A stretch of DNA of 46,757 bases, from positions 1-46,757 of the forward strand of contig JAADFO010000063.1 in NCBI GenBank assembly GCA_013152815.1, given 5' to 3'. This document shows positions 27,999 through 46,757 of this stretch, one piece after another (the first letter of the stretch is position 1; the number at the start of each line of letters is the position of its first letter). The position numbers and the translations under genes were made by a program. The stretch comes from Nanobdellati archaeon (lineage in GTDB: Archaea > Nanobdellota > Nanobdellia > Woesearchaeales > JAADFO01). The notes below the pieces were generated by a model. That model was not told the origin of the DNA, did not search any database, and was given only the letters and a program-made list of their open reading frames with translations.

Positions 27999-28721
27999 AT
28001 GCCTGATTCCATGTCCGACCGCTACGCACGTCAGGAGGCGCTCCCTGCCATCGGGAAAGCAGGCCAGAAAAAACTTGGGGAAGCAACCGTCACGATCGTC
28101 GGTCTTGGCGCCATCGGAAGCCATGCTGCAGAGCTTCTCCTTCGTGCAGGTGTGCATAACCTCATCCTCATCGATGATGATATGGTCGAGCTCTCCAATC
28201 TCCAGCGGCAGGCGCTCTATACCGAGAAGGACATCGGCCTCATGAAGGCTGATGCGATTGCCCGTCATCTGCAGGCGATCGACGGCAAGGCCAGGCTCGG
28301 CATCCATACAAAAAGGATGGACGAAGGGAACATGGATTCATTGCTGCCGTCAATGGGCAGGGACGCAGGCAGGGTCGTCCTCGACTGCACCGACAACCTC
28401 GAGACAAGATACCTCATCGACGCCCGCTGCAAGAGCAAGAACATCCCCTGGGTGCATGCCGCCTGCGTCGGCTGGTGGGGCGAGGTGAAAGTCTTCCCTT
28501 CCTTCTCATCTTCTGTCCGGCAGAAGACCTATCAGGACATCTTCCCGGACAAGAAGACGCCTCTGGGCTGTGTCGATGCCGGTGTCCTCAACCATGCTGT
28601 GGCTATGACCGCGGCCATCCAGGTCGGCGAGACGGTCAAGCTCATCCTCGGAGAGCCACCCACAGAAGAGCTGATGCGCATCAATGCATGGAAGCATACT
28701 ATCGAGAAGATACGGGTCTAG
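27999..28721 (+). CDS. ThiF/MoeB-family E1-like enzyme (UbaA-like), zinc motifs absent
   Basis: RYARQ, GLGAIG, DDDMVELSNLQRQ, DCTDN, LGCVDAGVL catalytic-loop Cys. Confidence 0.92.
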   Translation: MPDSMSDRYARQEALPAIGKAGQKKLGEATVTIVGLGAIGSHAAELLLRAGVHNLILIDDDMVELSNLQRQALYTEKDIGLMKADAIARHLQAIDGKARLGIHTKRMDEGNMDSLLPSMGRDAGRVVLDCTDNLETRYLIDARCKSKNIPWVHAACVGWWGEVKVFPSFSSSVRQKTYQDIFPDKKTPLGCVDAGVLNHAVAMTAAIQVGETVKLILGEPPTEELMRINAWKHTIEKIRV

Positions 28722-33523: not shown

Positions 33524-36028
33524 TCAGCCCATATAACTGGGCTTCTCCTCCTGCATCTGTTTCGCCTTTGCCTGTCTGAAGAAGTTCTCGAGCTGCTTGT
33601 AGTTTTCGATGATATCCTTGGATACGGATGGTTTGACTATCTCCCTGGCCTTGTCGAAATGCTTCTTTGAAATCTTCTTGGCCTTGATGTCATCCCGAAG
33701 GGCCATGATGGCCGCTTCTCTGGTCATCCCCTCGATGTCTGCTCCGACATAGCCTTCGGTGATCTCAGCGAGTTTCATCAGGTCCACGTCATTGTCCAGA
33801 GGCATCTTCTTTGTATGGATATCGAAGATCTTCTTCCGGGCAACGGCATCGGGGACCGTACACATGATGATCCTGTCGAACCGTCCTGGTCTCAAAAGGG
33901 CTGTATCCAGGATGTCTGGCCTGTTGGTGGCAGCGAGGACGACGATGTCGTTCATCTCGGTGAGGCCGTCCATCTCGGTGAGCAGCTGGTTGACGACCCT
34001 CTCTCCCACCCGATTGTCGCCTTCCATGCCTCTTCGGGCCGCGATGGAGTCTATCTCGTCGAAGAAGACGATGGCTGGTGAAGCCTGTCGTGCCTTGTCG
34101 AAGATCTTCCTGATGCCTTTCTCAGACTCGCCGACCCATTTGGAGATGAGCTCAGGCCCTTTGACCAGGATGAAGTTTGCTTCTGACTCGTTGGCGACGG
34201 CCTTGGCGAGCAGGGTCTTCCCGGTTCCCGGAGGTCCGTAGAGCAGGATGCCCTTGGGGGGTGTCACGCCCATCCGGGTGAATGCCTCAGGGTTGGAGAT
34301 GGGCCACTCGACCGCTTCCATGAGGCTCTGCTTCACGTCGGCAAGTCCGCCGATCATGTCCCAGGTCACGTTGGGCCTCTCGATGAGCACCTCCCGCAGC
34401 GCAGAGGGCCTGACGACCTTGAGCGATTCGATGAAATCCTTATGGGTGATGATGAGCTTCTCAAGCGTTTCTTTGGGGATGGGCTCGTCTTCCTTGAGCT
34501 TGAGGTCAGGGAGTATCCTCCGAAGGACGATCATCGCGGCCTCCTTGGCCAGGGCAGAGAGGTCGGCTCCCACGAAGCCGTGGGTACGATGGGCGAGTTC
34601 GTCCAGGTTGACGATTCTTTTGTTGTCGGCCAGCCTGTGCCAGTACTTATAGAGTTTCTCAGAATCGATCTGCTTGAAGAAGTCATTCTTCTCTGGATTT
34701 GACTTCAGGTATTTGGAGACAGCGTTCGTGATGCTTTTCTTTGATGCCTTGCCGTTGGCGTCCATGAATGACATGATGTTCATCATCGCTTCCTTATATG
34801 CCTCTTCGATGTCTGTGGCATCCTTGATGGCCTGGGCGAAGGAGTAGAGCGGCATATAACGGGTATGGATCTGGAGGATGGAATGCCGTCCCTTCATCGA
34901 GGGGACGCCTATCTCGACCTCCCGGTCGAACCGGCCAGGCCGGCGCAGTGCGGGATCAAGAGAGTTCGGGATGTTGGTGGCTGCGATCACCACCACTTTT
35001 CCACGGGACTTGAGCCCGTCCATGATGGCGAGCAGCTGTGCCACCACTCTCCGTTCCACCTCGCCATGGGCTTCTTCCCGTTTGGAGGCGATGGCGTCCA
35101 CTTCGTCGATGAAGATGATGGCCGGAGCGTTCTTCTCTGCCTCTTCGAACTTCTTCCGGAGGTTCTCTTCGGACTGGCCGTAGTACTTGGACATGATCTC
35201 CGGACCGTTGATGACGATGAAATGGGAATTGGTCTCGTTGGCGACGGCCTTGGCGAGCAGGGTCTTCCCTGTCCCGGGGGGTCCATGGAGCAACACCCCT
35301 TTCGGTGCGTCGATGCCCATGCGCTCGAAGAGTTCAGGATGCTTCAGCGGCAGTTCGACCATCTCCCTTATCTTGGTGATCTCCTCCTGAAGGCCCCCGA
35401 TGTCCTCATAGGTGACTTCCAGGATCTTGTGGTCGTCGATCTCCACCGCTTCCGGGTTGAATTCCACCTCGGTGAGCTCAGAGATGAGCACGGCATCGCC
35501 GGGTGTGGTGTCTGCGACGATGAACTTGATGTCGCCGAAACCCAGCCCCACCATGTCATCATCGATGATGTTGAAGATGTCGTTGAAGAACGGGCTCTGG
35601 GACATCGTGTTCCTTCTTCGCCGGGTGCCTCCCAGAGAGACGATGTCGCCCTTGACGACTGCCCTTCCCAGAAGTCCCTGCTTGAAGATGTTGGACGATG
35701 CCCGTATCATGATCCCTTTGGATGCAGGGCCGATCTTGATCCTCTTGGCCTCTTTCACTTCTGCTTTCCTGATGGTGACGTTCTCTCCGATGCCGGTCTT
35801 GGCGTTCCTCCTGATGATGCCGTCGGTGCGGATGATGCTCAGGCCGATATCACCCGGGTAGGCACGGTCCACGATGCCCACGGTCTTCCGCTGGCCTTCG
35901 ATCTCGACGATGTCCCCCGGCCGTACATCTATCTCCTTCATGAATGCAGTGTCGATGCGGACGATGCCCTTGTTCACATCATCCTGGATGGCCTCGGCGA
36001 CCTTGAGTCTTATCTCTTGTCTTCCCAT
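33524..36028 (-). CDS. cdc48: Cdc48/VAT AAA+ ATPase with a helical insertion after D1
   Basis: N-domain plus two GPPGTGKT Walker A, DEVD/DEID Walker B, RPGRFD; C-terminal PSYMG HbYX-like tail. Confidence 0.97.
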
Positions 36029-40639: not shown

Positions 40640-42736
40640 TTACCTCCGTCTTCCTGCACGGAGGACGATGAAGAGCGTCACCAGGAAGAAGGCCAGCGCG
40701 ACCAGAAGCATGGCCGGAAGATAATTTCCCATGGACCGCAGCATCCTCGATGCCCGTATCTCGACGCTGTCCATCAGATTTACCTTGTCCATCCTCACTG
40801 TTATTTCCCGGTGCGTTCCATAGTCTCGTCCCCGCTCGTCGCTGAAGCCCACCGAGAGGTTGAAGGTGTTGTTTCCTGGTTCCAGTCCCTTGGCCACCAT
40901 GTTCAGGGCGAACTGTTTATCCCCATGGAGTGCGTCCACCTGCCATGTCCGGTCATAGGAGTCGCTGCGGAGCCGTATGGTGAGATTCTTCGGGTCAGAG
41001 GAAGATCCCTTCTTCAGGAGAAAATCGATGTCATAAGGCTGCTTATACTGGACTGTCTTCGGAATCTTCACCTTTTCGATGGAGAGCGCTGGTTCGTCAT
41101 AGACCTCGACGGTCATCTGTTCGAGCATCTCCTTTCCTTCCTGCCCTAGCCGGACGAAGAGCTCTTTCCTTCCCGGAGTGTCGGGGATGTAGGTGAGATT
41201 GCTCTTCTGCTCCTGGGCGATGGGAAGGGTGAAATGGGTGCACCGGTCCAGGCAGAGGGTCATGTTCCGGAGCAGCACATTCCCCCTGTTCTTGACCGTG
41301 CAGCCGATGCGGAGCGTCTCGTTGAGATAGACAAATGATGTTTCAGGGACACAGGTGAGGACGGTCTCCTCTTCAGGGGAAGCTTTTGCTCTGGAGCGTT
41401 CCCGCTCTCTTCCCTGTTCTGCATAGGCCAGGGCATCCTTCTTGCTGATGAACGATCGGCCCTTTCTCGCCCTGAAGATCCCCTGGACGCTGTTGTTGGT
41501 GTTGGTGGCTGCACCGACCGTGAACGTGTAGATGAATTGGTCGTCCAGGGACTGGACCTGGAAAAGGTAATACGCTGTGACAGCTTCCGACGGCCTGACA
41601 AGCACATGCTGGGTCTGTGGCCCGATCAGGGTCACTCCTTTGGAGCGTTGATAGGTCAACCGCAACGGAACATAGGACGACCCGAGGTTCTTCGCCTTCA
41701 CTTCCATGACATTGTAAGAGCCGAGGTCGACCTCCTCCCTGAGGAAAGCCATGCTCAGTGCCACCTTCTTTTCTGACGGGCCATCGAAGCCTGTTACGTT
41801 CACCTGCTCGTCCAGCGGCGATGCCTGAAGGTCGATGTCCCTGCCTTTCCAATGATAGCGGGTGGAACCGGCCTTGGTGTCCTTGTCGTGTTTGAGTTCG
41901 ATGTGGGATGCATCGACGAATCCATACTCCTGATAGCTGATGTCAAAGGGCACCCATCCGAAGCCAGGGAAATAGACCTCTGCCCAGCCGTGGGGGCTGA
42001 AACCTTCGTCGAAGACCTCATAGTCGGTGTAGGCGAGGCCGGAGACATATCTCGCCGGAACTCCGAGGGAGCGCATCATGGCGATGAAGAGCGTCGAGAG
42101 CTCGTCACAGACACCTTTCCTGTTCTCCAATACCCATGATGCCTTCTGGGACGCGTCCGCCGTCAGCGTCGACAGGCTGTACTTGATGTTCTCCTCTACC
42201 CAGGTGGCCACGGTGAAGGCGACATCGTAGAGGTCGTCCTTTCCGGTGGCGAGTTCAGATGCCCTTATCATGATGTCCGGGTCGGCAGCGTCCACATTCG
42301 GCGTCGGCAGGGTATAGCTCTTTATTTCTTCCGAGAGATTTCTCACCGGGAACGCGACTTTTCTGCTTATCCTGGGAAAATGATGGTCTGTGGAGATGTC
42401 CGCGCTCACCGAGAAGGTCAGCCGATCCTGGTCCGGGTCTGAGAACTCGAAGATGAGGTGATCCTTCCCTGTCACCGATCCCGGCCGGGTGACCATATCC
42501 CTCACCTGTTGCCTCTCTGTCTGCCGCGGAAAACTGCTGAGGTTCACCCTTACACTCTGGAGAAGGCTGTCAGCTGATTTTGCTATCACCTTCAGGGTTC
42601 CGGTCATGACGATGGTCGCGTTCATGCCCGACGCGGTATAATACGGTTGTGCTGTCGTGATGGACGTGAAGAGCGTGACCAGTAAGAGAAGAAGCGACAG
42701 CAGGGCCAGCCTATGAGCAAGGGACACCTCTTTCAT
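40640..42736 (-). CDS. Exported transglutaminase-like protein with Ig-like domains and C-terminal TM
   Basis: Signal peptide; GVCDELSTLF, HGWAEVY, WVPFDIS Cys-His-Asp triad; C-terminal TM plus RRR. Confidence 0.9.
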   Translation of the reverse strand: MKEVSLAHRLALLSLLLLLVTLFTSITTAQPYYTASGMNATIVMTGTLKVIAKSADSLLQSVRVNLSSFPRQTERQQVRDMVTRPGSVTGKDHLIFEFSDPDQDRLTFSVSADISTDHHFPRISRKVAFPVRNLSEEIKSYTLPTPNVDAADPDIMIRASELATGKDDLYDVAFTVATWVEENIKYSLSTLTADASQKASWVLENRKGVCDELSTLFIAMMRSLGVPARYVSGLAYTDYEVFDEGFSPHGWAEVYFPGFGWVPFDISYQEYGFVDASHIELKHDKDTKAGSTRYHWKGRDIDLQASPLDEQVNVTGFDGPSEKKVALSMAFLREEVDLGSYNVMEVKAKNLGSSYVPLRLTYQRSKGVTLIGPQTQHVLVRPSEAVTAYYLFQVQSLDDQFIYTFTVGAATNTNNSVQGIFRARKGRSFISKKDALAYAEQGRERERSRAKASPEEETVLTCVPETSFVYLNETLRIGCTVKNRGNVLLRNMTLCLDRCTHFTLPIAQEQKSNLTYIPDTPGRKELFVRLGQEGKEMLEQMTVEVYDEPALSIEKVKIPKTVQYKQPYDIDFLLKKGSSSDPKNLTIRLRSDSYDRTWQVDALHGDKQFALNMVAKGLEPGNNTFNLSVGFSDERGRDYGTHREITVRMDKVNLMDSVEIRASRMLRSMGNYLPAMLLVALAFFLVTLFIVLRAGRRR

Positions 42737-43233
42737 CGGTGAAATCCCCTCTCTGTGGCTATTTAATTGTTTCGCTCAGAAGGACTATTATGAGATCCTC
42801 TGCTTTTTTGCCGAATGCATGATCGTCTGTGCCATCGATGTCAGCATTTCCGACTGAAAGGAGGACAATGATGGCTGGCCAGACGTAATCGACGGGGTTC
42901 GTATACAACGTATACGGTTCCCTTTGGTGCCAGCAACTTGTTGCTGAGCATCGTCGATGGAGTAGGTCATGCATTGGGCATGCTCTTGCAGGGTCTCATA
43001 GCAGCCGCTCAGAAGGATGTTGTAGACAGTCACGCTGATACGTGGCCAGCATCAAGCCGGTCGCAGATTTCCTAATCTGCGGAATGTTTTCCTGGCGAGG
43101 GGTCTTTTCCGAAAGATATTCCTTCCCTTCCGGAAACCCATCGTCCTCGTCGAGAACCTTCTGTCTTTTCGTCAGAAAACCAGTTCTTCATTCCTTTCTT
43201 TCCTCGTTGCCATAACTCTGCGAGGTGCGGGAC

Positions 43234-43839
43234 ATGGAAAAGAGTAAACAGAGTAAACAGGCGATATATCTGATCATGACGACAGAACTGGTCAAGGAGA
43301 AGCAAGAGCAGCCATCGGACCGGCGTGACGACAGCGCCTCTGCATCGACCTCTGCCGGCGAATCAGGCCAGTCCAACGAATCCATCGTCCTCTATGAACC
43401 GATGATCAAGGCGGCGAATCTCAATGATGTGCTGAAGTGGAACATGATCGAGCTGAAGGACTACATGCTCAACAACGAACCAGACCTTGTGGGAGACATG
43501 TATCAGAAGGGACCTCAGGAGACTGCAACTGTTGTCAGGGACTTCTATCAAAAGGTCACTGAGAATCCCGGGCGTTTCCGGGCAGACCTCTATCTCTTCC
43601 CCAAGGATACAGGAGAAACAGTAAAGATCATGGTTCGGCCGTTCGATACGGTGGCTGATTTCGCAGACCGTGTCATCGGTGAACAGACGCCCGACATCGA
43701 TGGAATGGAACTCACCGACAAGGTCCTTGCAGGCATGTTCCTTCTGGTCGACGGTCTTGGCAGTCTTGGCAGTCTTAGCAATGCGCCACGAATGGATGCA
43801 CCCAACCTGTATCGGTTGCTTGCAGCCTACGGGCAGTGA
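43234..43839 (+). CDS. Putative ubiquitin-like (beta-grasp) modifier precursor
   Basis: LYLFPKDTGETVKIMVRPFDTVADFADRV resembles the ubiquitin N-terminus; Gly-rich DGLGSLG and terminal YGQ; first gene of an operon with E2-like and E1 genes. Start uncertain (43225/43234/43276). Confidence 0.5.
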   Translation: MEKSKQSKQAIYLIMTTELVKEKQEQPSDRRDDSASASTSAGESGQSNESIVLYEPMIKAANLNDVLKWNMIELKDYMLNNEPDLVGDMYQKGPQETATVVRDFYQKVTENPGRFRADLYLFPKDTGETVKIMVRPFDTVADFADRVIGEQTPDIDGMELTDKVLAGMFLLVDGLGSLGSLSNAPRMDAPNLYRLLAAYGQ

Positions 43840-43854
43840 GGTGCTTCTCTGCCC

Positions 43855-45210
43855 ATGCTCACCCTCACCAGCCAGACACCGTTCAGCAGCACGCTAGGTC
43901 AGGGGTATGGCTATGTTCTCATGGGATCCCAGCTGTTCACGCTTGATGATAGGCGGAACGGTCTTGCACGCCATGTCTTCACCGATGGTCAGGTCTACTG
44001 GTTTCAGGGCGGTCTCAATTATGATACCCTGGAAAAACGGATCATCACCAACAATCTTCCCTCCATCCTTGCTGAAGTGAACGATCAGCTGGCCGAGGAA
44101 GCAGCCAGCGGAACCAAGGATCGGCTCAGAGCAGACACCATCCGTGCCTCTTTCAAGCATCTCACTCCGCAAACCTATGAGCAGTATATCCTCCAGCACA
44201 TTCTCGGGAGCTATGATGTTCCTCTCAGGGCATCTCCCGGCAGGTGCACATCATCTGCTGCAAATGAGTGGAGGATCACCGGTCGGGATCTGCTCAGTCG
44301 TCTTCCCATCCTCACTCCACCATACCAGGATACTGCTCTCTATTTTCATCAGGACCTCGTGGATCTGTTCTCTCTTCGGAAAACAAACGACACTTCTGTT
44401 GTTTCTTGGCAGACTGCTCGGCAGCAGGTGATGCAGGCGGTGGCTAATCTCATCAGTTCGAAACAGCGGCTTCAGCCTCAATACATCGCTCTTGGTTCTA
44501 CAAAGCTCTTCAGGAAGTCGACCCTGAGCATCGACATGTTCCTGCAGGAATATGAGCAGCGCTATCAGGGGATCCTTGATGATCTCATCCGGACAAGCAC
44601 CGCAAAGGTGGATAAGTTGAAGATGGTCGCTGCTCAGGACTATCAGCAGAGCAGTGACCAGTTGCGTGCGCTCAGTCGGGGACGTGCCCATCAGCAGGAT
44701 AAGGATCCTATCTGGTACGAACGGCTGACTGACAAGACCTTTCATCTTTTCCTGCGCATACCTCCCTTTGTGATGGTCTCAAGCGAGACCTACTATTATT
44801 TCAAAAGACCTGTCACCGTCAGGATGAAGATATCTTTCGCTGATAGCCACGGAAGTGTGGAACTTCCTCGGATCATCCATCCTCTGAAGTATGTTCATCC
44901 GTTCGTTTATTCCCCTTCAGCCGATGTCAAGGGACAAAGCATCTGCTTCAATAGTGGTTCTTCCTTGACTTCCTTGGGGGTCCGGTTGCACGATACCCCT
45001 GTCCACGGCATGGATGACCCTTCTTTTGCAAGGAATGTCCTCCTGCTTCTCAAGAAGACCGTCAACGGCCTGACGTCGGGCTATGTTGAGGGAGTGAAAC
45101 CTGTCCATAACTTGAGCGCTTTCTCTGACTTGGCTGTTCCTCCCTCTGAGATACCTTCCCACGTGCCTGTCTACTATCAGGACACCATGGACTGGGGCGG
45201 TCAGCGATGA
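43855..45210 (+). CDS. Protein with C-terminal E2/UBC-like domain and long N-terminal extension
   Basis: LFLRIPPF...LPRII...VHPFVY...GQSICF (His348-Pro, Cys364) resembles the E2 HPN..G.ICL core; GAGGTG RBS; ATGA overlap with E1. Confidence 0.6.
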   Translation: MLTLTSQTPFSSTLGQGYGYVLMGSQLFTLDDRRNGLARHVFTDGQVYWFQGGLNYDTLEKRIITNNLPSILAEVNDQLAEEAASGTKDRLRADTIRASFKHLTPQTYEQYILQHILGSYDVPLRASPGRCTSSAANEWRITGRDLLSRLPILTPPYQDTALYFHQDLVDLFSLRKTNDTSVVSWQTARQQVMQAVANLISSKQRLQPQYIALGSTKLFRKSTLSIDMFLQEYEQRYQGILDDLIRTSTAKVDKLKMVAAQDYQQSSDQLRALSRGRAHQQDKDPIWYERLTDKTFHLFLRIPPFVMVSSETYYYFKRPVTVRMKISFADSHGSVELPRIIHPLKYVHPFVYSPSADVKGQSICFNSGSSLTSLGVRLHDTPVHGMDDPSFARNVLLLLKKTVNGLTSGYVEGVKPVHNLSAFSDLAVPPSEIPSHVPVYYQDTMDWGGQR

Positions 45211-46691
45211 ATGCGGCAAGCACCCAACTCCGTTTCGACCGCAATATCCTTCTTTTTGGTGAAGAGGGACAACGACGTCTCATGGATACTCACGTCCTCC
45301 TTCACGGGACCAACACCCTCTCCCAGAAGATCGCCCTGTCCCTGATCAGCCTTGGCATCGGCAGGCTCTCGCTCATCGGACCAGAACATCTGCAGGGATA
45401 TGATCCTTCTGATTTCCTGCTGTATCTGAATCCTTCCCGCCCGGCCGAGGGAATGAAGGCAGATGGTCTGCGTTCGACCCTGGAGCAGATCGCTCTCCGC
45501 GGAAAACAGCAGGTCGATTCCTATGGCATCCCCCCTGATCCTGGTTTCCTCTCTTTTCTCTCACCAGACATCATCATCGACGCGACCAATGCTCTGGAGA
45601 GCAAGGATGCCTTGTCTGCCTATGCGATGTCCCATGGGACACATCTCATCTCTGCCAGCGCGACGTCTACCGACGGACTGGCCCAGTTATGCTCCTCAGG
45701 ACAGTCCCCTGTCGACAGAGCATCGCTTGAACGCCTGATAGGCAAGGACTACGGCATCTTCACCGGTTCCATCACCGCGGGACTCGTGAGCAATCTGGTG
45801 CGTCGGATCGCCATTCCCTTCGCAAACGAACAGAAGACCCTGCCTCCTGTCCTGACCCAGTCCTACGCGCTCTCAAGGATTGCCGGCATCACCACACCCA
45901 TCGATGCTCCTGATGCTTTACCCTGGCCCTCTTCAAGGCCCTATGCTGGTGTCAAAGCGCTCGTGATCGGCACAGGAGGCATCGGCAACTTCCTCGCGCT
46001 TGACCTTGCGCTGCTGGGAATCACTCATGTTACCTTGGTGGACCCCGATGTGATCGAGGAATCCAACCTCAACCGGCAGCCGCTGCTCTATGGCCGGGTC
46101 GGAAAGCCAAAGGCAACTGTCATCGGTGAACGCATGGGCCTGATCTATCCCGGAGTATCTGCAAGACCGTTGGTCGACTTTTTCAGCTATAAGCATGATG
46201 ATCGAGGACGGTTTCAGGTCTTGCCTGAACCGCTGGCTTCAGAACACTATGACCTCATCTTCTCCTGCGTGGACAATGAGACCAGCAGGCTTGCCATCAA
46301 CGACTACGCGGTCCAGACGAGGACTGTCCTGGTCCAGGGAAGATTGGGGACAGGCAGCGGACTGCATACCTATGTTCCCGGAAGGAACCGGTGCATCGAC
46401 TGCCAGGAGAACCTGCGCGCATCCCTGGAGAACCAGAAGGCCACGGGCCTTGATGTCGACAAGGTATTGGGCCCCGGCTGCCAGCTCGAGTCCAACCCGA
46501 ACATCGTGGTCCCGAACATCATCGTCGCAGGTCTGATGACAGAGGAAGGTCTGCGTGCGCTCTACAGACCAGCGAGTTTTGCCCGACAGAAGGATGCATT
46601 GTTCTATGAAGGGGTCGGATCGTTCCCTTTCTCCTTCCGGGGAGGCGTCGATCCCTACTATCAAGCCCATCCTTGCATCGATGTTTCCTGA
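45207..46691 (+). CDS. Tandem-domain E1 enzyme (inactive plus active ThiF adenylation domains)
   Basis: Domain 1: RFDRNILLFGEEGQRRL, degenerate loop HGTNTLS, DATN. Domain 2: GTGGIG, DPDVIEESNLNRQ, GKPKA, SCVDN, CIDC, PGCQ. Confidence 0.88.
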   Translation: MNAASTQLRFDRNILLFGEEGQRRLMDTHVLLHGTNTLSQKIALSLISLGIGRLSLIGPEHLQGYDPSDFLLYLNPSRPAEGMKADGLRSTLEQIALRGKQQVDSYGIPPDPGFLSFLSPDIIIDATNALESKDALSAYAMSHGTHLISASATSTDGLAQLCSSGQSPVDRASLERLIGKDYGIFTGSITAGLVSNLVRRIAIPFANEQKTLPPVLTQSYALSRIAGITTPIDAPDALPWPSSRPYAGVKALVIGTGGIGNFLALDLALLGITHVTLVDPDVIEESNLNRQPLLYGRVGKPKATVIGERMGLIYPGVSARPLVDFFSYKHDDRGRFQVLPEPLASEHYDLIFSCVDNETSRLAINDYAVQTRTVLVQGRLGTGSGLHTYVPGRNRCIDCQENLRASLENQKATGLDVDKVLGPGCQLESNPNIVVPNIIVAGLMTEEGLRALYRPASFARQKDALFYEGVGSFPFSFRGGVDPYYQAHPCIDVS

Positions 46692-46757
46692 CCATCAGGA
46701 ACTGCTTGTCCTGAAGCGATCATCATCGTGAAAAGCACATCCCGAAAAGAAGCAACA

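Follow-up and report, generated by a model that had tools for sequence, protein, structure and literature searches.

A putative four-gene ubiquitin-like conjugation cascade without an E3 in a Woesearchaeales archaeon

The stretch of DNA analysed here (the window, 46,757 nucleotides (nt)) is the entire contig JAADFO010000063.1 (C63) of assembly GCA_013152815.1, a 1.49 Mb, 91% complete genome of a Nanobdellati archaeon of the order Woesearchaeales. We consider it very likely that the last three genes of this contig, together with a fourth gene beyond its end, form a self-contained conjugation cascade that works without a ligase (E3) and consists of a ubiquitin-like protein (Ubl), a conjugating enzyme (E2), an activating enzyme (E1) and a JAB protease. 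This reading is built on predicted folds, motifs, conservation and gene linkage, all obtained for these genes; the chemistry is modelled by analogy to the Bil and Caldiarchaeum systems, and the cut site in the Ubl and the role of an N-terminal arm of the E2 are likewise what we infer. The gene set itself is real and beyond chance, because it recurs in many genomes and because the catalytic residues coincide with conserved columns.

The three genes of the window are called as open reading frames (ORFs) on the same strand (Table 1) and are as tightly coupled as the initial annotation described, with coordinates that agree exactly. Genes 1 and 2 are separated by 15 nt (43840-43854), with a GAGGTG that overlaps the stop of gene 1, and genes 2 and 3 share an ATGA overlap (45207-45210). 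Gene 1 would be 201 residues long from the ATG that follows its own GAGGTG, or 204 if the GTG at 43225 is used. The G+C content at third codon positions (GC3) is 0.60-0.66 for the cassette versus 0.70-0.77 in five neighbouring genes. A sigma-70 promoter scan of the region stayed at chance level, with a model that does not fit archaea.

Table 1. Position and basis of assignment of the cassette features in the window
Feature	Position	Strand	Basis
GAGGTG ribosome-binding-like site, gene 1	43222..43227	+	sequence; 6 nt 5' of ATG 43234
Gene 1, putative Ubl precursor, 201 aa	43234..43839	+	AlphaFold2 model, VIA, family Gly columns
GAGGTG site, gene 2, overlaps gene 1 stop	43838..43843	+	sequence
Gene 2, E2-like, 451 aa	43855..45210	+	invariant Cys, PDB profile matches, model, VIA
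Gene 3, E1, 494 aa	45207..46691	+	Pfam ThiF x2, conservation, PDB profile match
54-nt exact overlap with contig C42 end	46704..46757	+	sequence identity

Gene 3 is the E1 with two ThiF domains that had been proposed from the sequence. Pfam recognises two ThiF stretches (E 8.5e-45), and the C-terminal, active domain carries G255, G257, D279, N287, R290, K302 and D356, the first six of which are kept in all 41 aligned cassette E1s. Cys425 occupies the catalytic position in a short crossover loop, in a protein that also has the Zn-type cysteines C396/C399 and C490; it is conserved in 40/41 cassette E1s, the exception being a gene truncated at the edge of its contig. The N-terminal half resembles ThiF (its profile matches ThiF, MoeB and UBA1 at E about 1e-21) but is degenerate, with no GxGxxG. 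Since the glycine-rich loop has been lost in most rows of the family, we take this half to be an inactive adenylation domain. The family profile finds its best PDB match in a ubiquitin E1 of two domains and aligns to it over both halves (E 4e-39). Across 41 rows the conserved Cys follows the CxxC after only 6-26 residues and 9-12 residues lie beyond it, too few to accommodate the 80-residue CYS domain of BilD. E1 scans of genome and virus collections returned single-domain ThiF genes that are without this E2 or Ubl. In a quick tree of E1 domains, with one UBA1 and without Bil, SAE1 or NAE1 rows, the inactive domain of UBA1 groups with the references and not with the inactive domains of the family (support 71, weak), and the E1 domains of this genome form a long branch. 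A separate duplication origin of the two-domain E1 is possible, but we draw no origin from this tree because its deep support is weak and because those rows are missing.

Gene 2 encodes two tandem modules (about residues 5-88 and 187-255) followed by a C-terminal domain (about 280-435) that is predicted to adopt the UBC fold. The E2-like motifs that first drew attention to this gene are present as His348-Pro349-Phe350 (HPFV, 348-351) and IC (363-364), which put Cys364 at the catalytic position. Cys364 is the only invariant column of the family, in 40/40 full-length and 49/49 domain sequences. A full HMMER search with gene 2 gave 19 matches, including itself and one unrelated-looking short match, and the family set was enlarged beyond these by members from mapped loci. 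Among the 56 PDB sequences matched by the E2-domain profile at E up to 10, 53 contain a UBC E2, and the alignments place HPF...IC on HPN...IC. The AlphaFold2 model of residues 276-451 has a predicted local distance difference test score (pLDDT) of 89.8. In the VIA structure comparison, the top ten matches of the wide search and 50/50 of the second-look matches listed are E2 entries, with Z 5.1-5.9 (best 5.7-5.9) and a root-mean-square deviation (rmsd) of 3.5-5 over about 105-115 residues; these scores are middling but concordant. Within the N-terminal 275 residues one module occurs twice (hhalign probability 97.7%), each copy closing with a long helix, and the two module profiles each match twice in 20/48 and 19/48 proteins. 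An Atlas search assigned no family to this region. None of the 49 family members matches a relevant Pfam family (UBC included), a single-sequence scan of gene 2 found no Pfam, PADLOC or NCBIfam family, and a word-indexed search returned gene 2 alone. A pattern scan, tblastn on phages and PHROGs revealed no copy of the E2 in viruses. As leads only, the best BFVD matches of the E2-domain model (A0A516KZW4, A0A1B0WLX5, A0A516L9P6 and A0A8S5QTZ6; E 0.008-0.13) are uncharacterised proteins of 370-590 aa, one of them from a crAss-like virus, and the Atlas likewise ranks phage hypothetical clusters first (0.86).

The AlphaFold2 model of gene 1 (mean pLDDT 77) shows a predicted beta-grasp core (residues 10-176, approximately) into which a hairpin is inserted; it also has an additional helix at 92-110, and the loop at about 21-50 is modelled with low confidence. 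Its best VIA Z is 6.2-6.3, and the matches listed are beta-grasp domains throughout; Caldiarchaeum ubiquitin is among the top fold matches (Z 6.2), and ubiquitin itself (1ubq) aligns over all 76 residues with Z 5.7 and rmsd 2.6. These values are middling and persuade through their uniformity, which points to a beta-grasp with insertions. Homologues are mostly 130-180 aa long, with a core of about 135 aa that includes insertions. In every one of 37 cassette Ubls of relatives the last strand ends, on reading by eye, in a Gly (Gly-Gly in 30, x-Gly in the other 7), beyond which there is mostly a tail of 0-16 residues. Judged from the alignment, the mature end of gene 1 is probably Gly176, with Gly179 as the alternative. 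The Ubl of G002, a genome of the same family, is 28% identical to gene 1, tail included, and the Leu-Gly end and a tail motif are common to both. The view of gene 1 as ubiquitin-like with C-proximal glycines is thus upheld for the fold and the conserved Gly, but the protein ends in Leu-Gly and a 25-residue tail, without a di-glycine. Similarly, the Ubl and E2 are as large as the initial annotation remarked, a size that is accounted for by insertions and N-terminal repeats. We found no relevant Pfam match in 51 members of the Ubl family and no ubiquitin Pfam family among them, a single-sequence scan of gene 1 found no Pfam, PADLOC or NCBIfam family, and a complex prediction for E1 and Ubl was uninformative (score 0.00, no control pairs run).

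Paralogues of the Ubl family also occur outside the Ubl-E2 position, where they are without Gly-Gly and end in Cys-containing tails (G000:C57:127-633 (L125), L100:5616-6044, L112:6717-7217, L117:1261-1839, L094:3410-3898 and L038:9343-9897). By their sequence, these proteins are possibly metal-binding, lipidated or disulfide-linked. The membrane-anchored Ub-fold proteins of eukaryotes may offer a parallel.

The window ends 66 nt after the stop of the E1, and the initial annotation accordingly listed no JAB gene. This results from the break between contigs. The final 54 nt of the window are the end of contig C42 read in reverse, no other contig has that end, and a JAB/JAMM gene opens 85 nt past the E1 stop, outside the window on C42 (L009:5314-6855, minus strand). 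It is followed on C42 by a gene that, by reading of its sequence, is aspartyl-tRNA-synthetase-like. A continuous Ubl-E2-E1-JAB block would thus span C63 and C42. The join is supported by the gene order in relatives and by G002, in which orthologues of all four genes lie in compatible order on three short contigs: one with the Ubl, the E2 and the start of the E1, one with the end of the E1 and an open acidic ORF, and one with a JAB cut at the contig end, which is 33% identical to the JAB on C42 over 298 aa. The JAB is 513 aa long and has a complete JAMM motif (E178, H241, H243, S251 and D254), the Glu/His/His/Asp of which is kept in 47/47 homologues. A single-sequence scan of the JAB gave no Pfam family; its profile (A6) matches Rpn11-like, AMSH and JAMM1 chains of the PDB, the best (E 4e-12) being an Rpn11-like chain that we take to be the one of Caldiarchaeum. 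The N-terminus of the JAB is acidic and of low complexity, and its C-terminal 110 residues are very basic (25% Lys+Arg). This basic end has no match among the other loci, where JABs of the family range from about 200 to 1033 aa.

The cascade is patchily spread in the order. The E2 profile matches 77/401 genomes (a tally that includes two unpublished genomes, on which no other result rests) and 69/258 genera, with up to six matches per genome; an early Ubl profile matched 39/401. In a sample of the phylum, the E2 profile matches 54/401 genomes, of which 13 belong to different orders of the same class, and in samples of two bacterial phyla, searched without an internal positive control, it matches 0/251 and 0/201. 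Named homologues belong to Candidatus Woesearchaeota or Nanoarchaeota, in agreement with the DPANN host that had been presumed from the sequence. We mapped 67 stretches chosen by E1 or Ubl matches, so that the counts describe a non-random sample. The E1 and E2 occur together in 42 of these; a JAB is present in 40 of the 42, the remaining two ending at a contig edge, and a recognised Ubl in 33. Co-occurrence of the genes across the order, like the predicted beta-grasp of gene 1 and the predicted UBC fold of gene 2, is the opposite of what the initial annotation had named as refuting its reading. The 42 loci show 13 gene orders, of which Ubl-E2-E1-JAB is the commonest (16 exact, 20 with an extra Ubl or JAB), and in 11 loci of relatives the order is E2-JAB-E1 with a single JAB. 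Another five cassettes, complete or nearly so, were located, other orders included. The catalytic residues of all four parts are kept at 14-34% overall identity. The absence of a visible RING gene, also remarked upon at the outset, extends to 0/42 loci and to the six frames of the genome in a pattern search of ORFs of at least 50 aa.

Some E2-family genes have no E1 beside them or encode just the short domain, in about 200-260 aa (L097, L149 and L038; G070, G107 and G390). Such genes, with up to six E2 matches in one genome, suggest that several E2s are served by one E1.

Several observations weigh against the cascade as we describe it. The best structural Z of the Ubl and E2 models is only 5.9-6.3, and Foldseek on both models gives nothing at E 0.001 or better, so that the fold check proposed by the initial annotation came out significant for neither model in Foldseek and in favour of beta-grasp and E2 folds in VIA. 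The Ubl profile matches no ubiquitin-like PDB sequence, and the UBC matches of the E2 profile are individually insignificant (E 0.19-1.6). Gene 2 has HPF, the consensus of its family, and not the HPN of canonical E2s. The end of the Ubl core is Leu175-Gly176 rather than di-Gly and is followed by the 25-residue tail, and a rigid alignment places Gly76 of ubiquitin on Ser177, one residue off. Finally, the link to the JAB is a contig overlap of 54 nt, whereas 23/26 contig-end overlaps in this assembly are 91 nt.

By analogy with the characterised systems, the JAMM protease would cut off the 25-residue tail of the Ubl and expose Gly176, which the active ThiF domain of the E1, packed on the inactive one, would adenylate. 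Cys425 in the short crossover loop would then accept the Ubl as a thioester and pass it to Cys364 of the E2, which may place it directly on target lysines. The two N-terminal modules of the E2 and their long helices may serve as a built-in arm for recognition or oligomerisation that replaces an E3, and the JAB could reverse the mark.

As to the role of the cascade, we tentatively favour conflict, in which proteins of a virus, a competitor or a host are modified as by Bil, over proteostasis or regulation; we would put this somewhat below an even chance. It is favoured because of the patchy spread, the paralogous cassettes, the shuffling of gene order, the differing flanks (two genera of one family have different cassette flanks) and the low GC3. 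Two observations run counter to a defence role. In one family (f90) four cassettes share an upstream gene family and three of them also a downstream gene, which looks like vertical inheritance, and PADLOC matched 11 of 150 flanking proteins (of the 154 nearest, with no background control), all in generic domains such as AAA, kinase or methyltransferase-like. The defensive role suggested by the initial annotation thus finds only indirect support, with no defence-island signal in the flanking proteins scanned. We hold more loosely a bolder form of the conflict reading, in which the genes represent a third, DPANN-specific E1-E2 branch, independent of Bil and of the Asgard/eukaryotic system, with an E1 of two domains that is eukaryote-like but minimal and has no CYS domain, an enlarged beta-grasp tag, and E2 modules that are a fused substrate receptor used by symbiotic archaea on viral or host proteins. 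If true, the weak kinship of the E2 to the phage proteins of 370-590 aa would be one side of an exchange between archaea and viruses.

The tag could instead mark proteins of the cell itself for unfolding and proteasomal degradation or for regulation, in the manner of SAMP or Pup. The genome has proteasome alpha and beta genes and a Cdc48-like AAA gene (33524-36028), an AAA ATPase lies upstream of 3/42 cassettes (one with proteasomal OB domains), the flanks are mostly housekeeping genes or genes without an assigned family, and the locus is stable in f90. We nevertheless regard this as rather unlikely, given that the cascade was not found in about four fifths of the genomes of the order that were searched, that no PAN-type OB domain was found in this 91%-complete genome, that 39/42 loci have no such ATPase within the stretch fetched, and that divergence is very fast and accompanied by gene shuffling. 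A Ubl that carries sulfur or a small group, like ThiS, MoaD or SAMP, with the E2-like Cys relaying it to a small molecule or peptide, seems improbable. The MoeB/ThiF-like active half of the E1 and its short Cys loop would fit such a relay, as would the RimK-type ATP-grasp ligase genes that adjoin two cassettes and the small transglutaminase-like genes near 9/42 (a cluster that includes one short non-transglutaminase member). However, a UBC-fold protein with an invariant Cys is encoded in all 42 loci (by construction of the set), and such proteins are not known to take part in sulfur relays. Nor does any sulfur-mobilising gene recur among the clustered neighbours, and tRNA thiolation has a carrier and an E1 of its own in this genome. 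The latter, predicted near 28 kb by the initial annotation as a housekeeping enzyme, is a single-domain ThiF/MoeB-like gene of 240 aa (27999-28721); the carrier is a 65-aa, GG-ended ThiS-family protein encoded far away on contig C43, where the gene right after it resembles, on reading its sequence, a tRNA thiolase. As judged from sequence, these two can cover sulfur transfer. Least probable of all, the family may be a real cascade of which this copy is degenerate, its Leu-Gly, long-tailed Ubl no longer being processed. The Leu-Gly in place of Gly-Gly, the long branch of the E1 domains and a miniature inverted-repeat transposable element (MITE)-like insertion about 230 nt upstream of gene 1 would agree with decay, but none of the four frames is broken, another genus has the same Leu-Gly end and tail motif, and 7/37 cassette Ubls have x-Gly ends; a single Gly also suffices for Bil Ubls (PMC10557695).

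Some further features of the genome and of the mapped loci deserve mention. The MITE-like element (about 220 nt, 42785-43005) lies between a transglutaminase gene and the operon and is flanked by an exact 12-nt direct repeat (42773-42784 and 43006-43017). It folds far better than shuffled sequence (z -6.9), has no Rfam match, and is matched on 14 other contigs at 77-96% identity, seven of them near full length. The transglutaminase gene (40640-42736, minus strand, divergent from the operon) encodes a protein of 698 aa that has hydrophobic ends and a transglutaminase core (Pfam E 9e-28) and is probably a surface protein unrelated to the cassette. We rejected it as a cassette member: it is on the opposite strand, it is absent beside the cassette of G002, and its size and architecture are unlike those of the 190-310-aa transglutaminases linked to cassettes. 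The ThiF/MoeB-like protein near 28 kb is without the usual Zn-binding CxxC and has Cys at 130, 144, 156 and 191. Among the relatives, L093:17189-18774 and L105:9592-12311 have a transglutaminase-like and a RimK-type ATP-grasp gene directly upstream of the Ubl and two JABs each, and kinases are nearby in L093 and L036. A family without a Pfam match (335-837 aa), not found in this genome, lies downstream of 8/42 cassettes (L031:4475-5830, L032:618-2117, L094:9383-11416, L098:7707-10220 and four more) and is a candidate target or effector.

In the literature available to us, we found no paper on such an operon in DPANN; the supplements of PMC11601596, PMC5654768, PMC1779556 and 10.1101/2023.09.04.556158, as well as subscription papers, could list it. 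The main text of a 2026 preprint on 208 complete Nanobdellota genomes names no ubiquitin, JAB, ThiF or Ubl, and the available part of a 2024 review makes no mention of DPANN, Woesearchaeota or Nanoarchaeota. Full archaeal E1-E2 Ubl cascades have been described from Caldiarchaeum and from the Asgard group. This range would be widened by a complete cascade that has distinct tag and E2 families and is carried by roughly one in five genomes of a DPANN order of reduced symbionts, and the retention of one to several 5-kb cassettes in reduced genomes suggests strong selection. The simple E1, with two adenylation domains and a bare catalytic loop, lends itself to studying how the layout of eukaryotic E1s came about. 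To this the present locus contributes a Leu-Gly, long-tailed Ubl subtype, a JAB found beyond the end of the contig, the tandem module of the E2 arm and a measured lack of the CYS domain. Because no partner from beyond the operon is predicted for any of the four proteins, the system can be reconstituted in E. coli.

SAMPylation works without an E2 (PMC11354881). The present system shares with Haloferax SAMP/UbaA an archaeal Ubl, a ThiF-type E1 and a JAMM protease, and differs in having an E2 and a two-domain E1; gene 3 scores 54 bits against NF047750, which has a cut-off of 450 bits, and the SAMP-like gene of this genome sits elsewhere. Bub (type 6E) forms Tyr/Ser oxyesters and has fused genes and DUF6527 (PMC11601596). 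With Bub and CBASS Cap2 it has in common the prokaryotic combination of E1, E2 and JAB, and the E2 domains of BubB and Cap2 are in the fold list (Z 4.9 and 5.1); unlike in Bub, Cys is conserved in E1 and E2 and the genes are separate, and the loci mapped show no cyclase gene or E1-E2 fusion.

A close parallel in gene content is BilABCD, whose types I and II correspond to 6d/6c in the operon classification by Iyer et al. 2006 (PMC10557695; bioRxiv 10.1101/2023.09.04.556158). Both have Ubl, E2, JAB and E1 genes without an E3 (the JAB here by way of the contig overlap), a single-chain E1 with inactive and active adenylation domains, and a Ubl made as a precursor in which a tail follows a conserved Gly; the JAB removes this tail in Bil (PMC10557695) and presumably here. 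BilD, however, has its 80-residue helical CYS domain in the crossover loop (PMC10557695), which the family of gene 3 is without, and the inactive domain is ThiF-like here, with PF14459 matched by 0/42 E1s. The signature of BilB is a Cys with a conserved downstream His (CEHH in type II), whereas our E2 family has a His before the Cys in 42/49 and a His at the only downstream candidate column in 18/49. The E2 also carries an N-terminal arm of 150-350 residues, the Ubl core is enlarged by insertions, and the PADLOC scan of flanking proteins, run without a control, gave no defence-island signal. BilA, BilB and BilD are not among the best 50-60 structure or sequence matches listed, and BilC is a weak match to the JAB profile (E 0.096). 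Heimdallarchaeota have one operon in the three supplement files of PMC10557695 (type II table), and these files contain no name from Woese-, Nano- or Pacearchaeota or another DPANN group.

The Caldiarchaeum/Asgard operon encodes Ub, E2, E1, a small RING and Rpn11, and its pro-ubiquitin is trimmed by the JAMM protease (PMC5654768). Our system resembles it as an archaeal operon with a JAMM protease that may likewise trim the Ubl, and differs from it in the lack of a RING pattern, in HPF versus HPN, in the two-domain E1, and in a Ubl and E2 that are unrecognisable by Pfam (0/51 and 0/49 members). With respect to the eukaryotic E1s (UBA1, SAE1/SAE2 and NAE1/UBA3), gene 3, at 494 aa in total, has neither FCCH/SCCH nor a ubiquitin-fold domain at its C-terminus, but it has the same order of inactive and active domains, and both halves of its profile match UBA1-type chains, just as the fold matches of the gene 2 domain are UBCs like the eukaryotic E2s.

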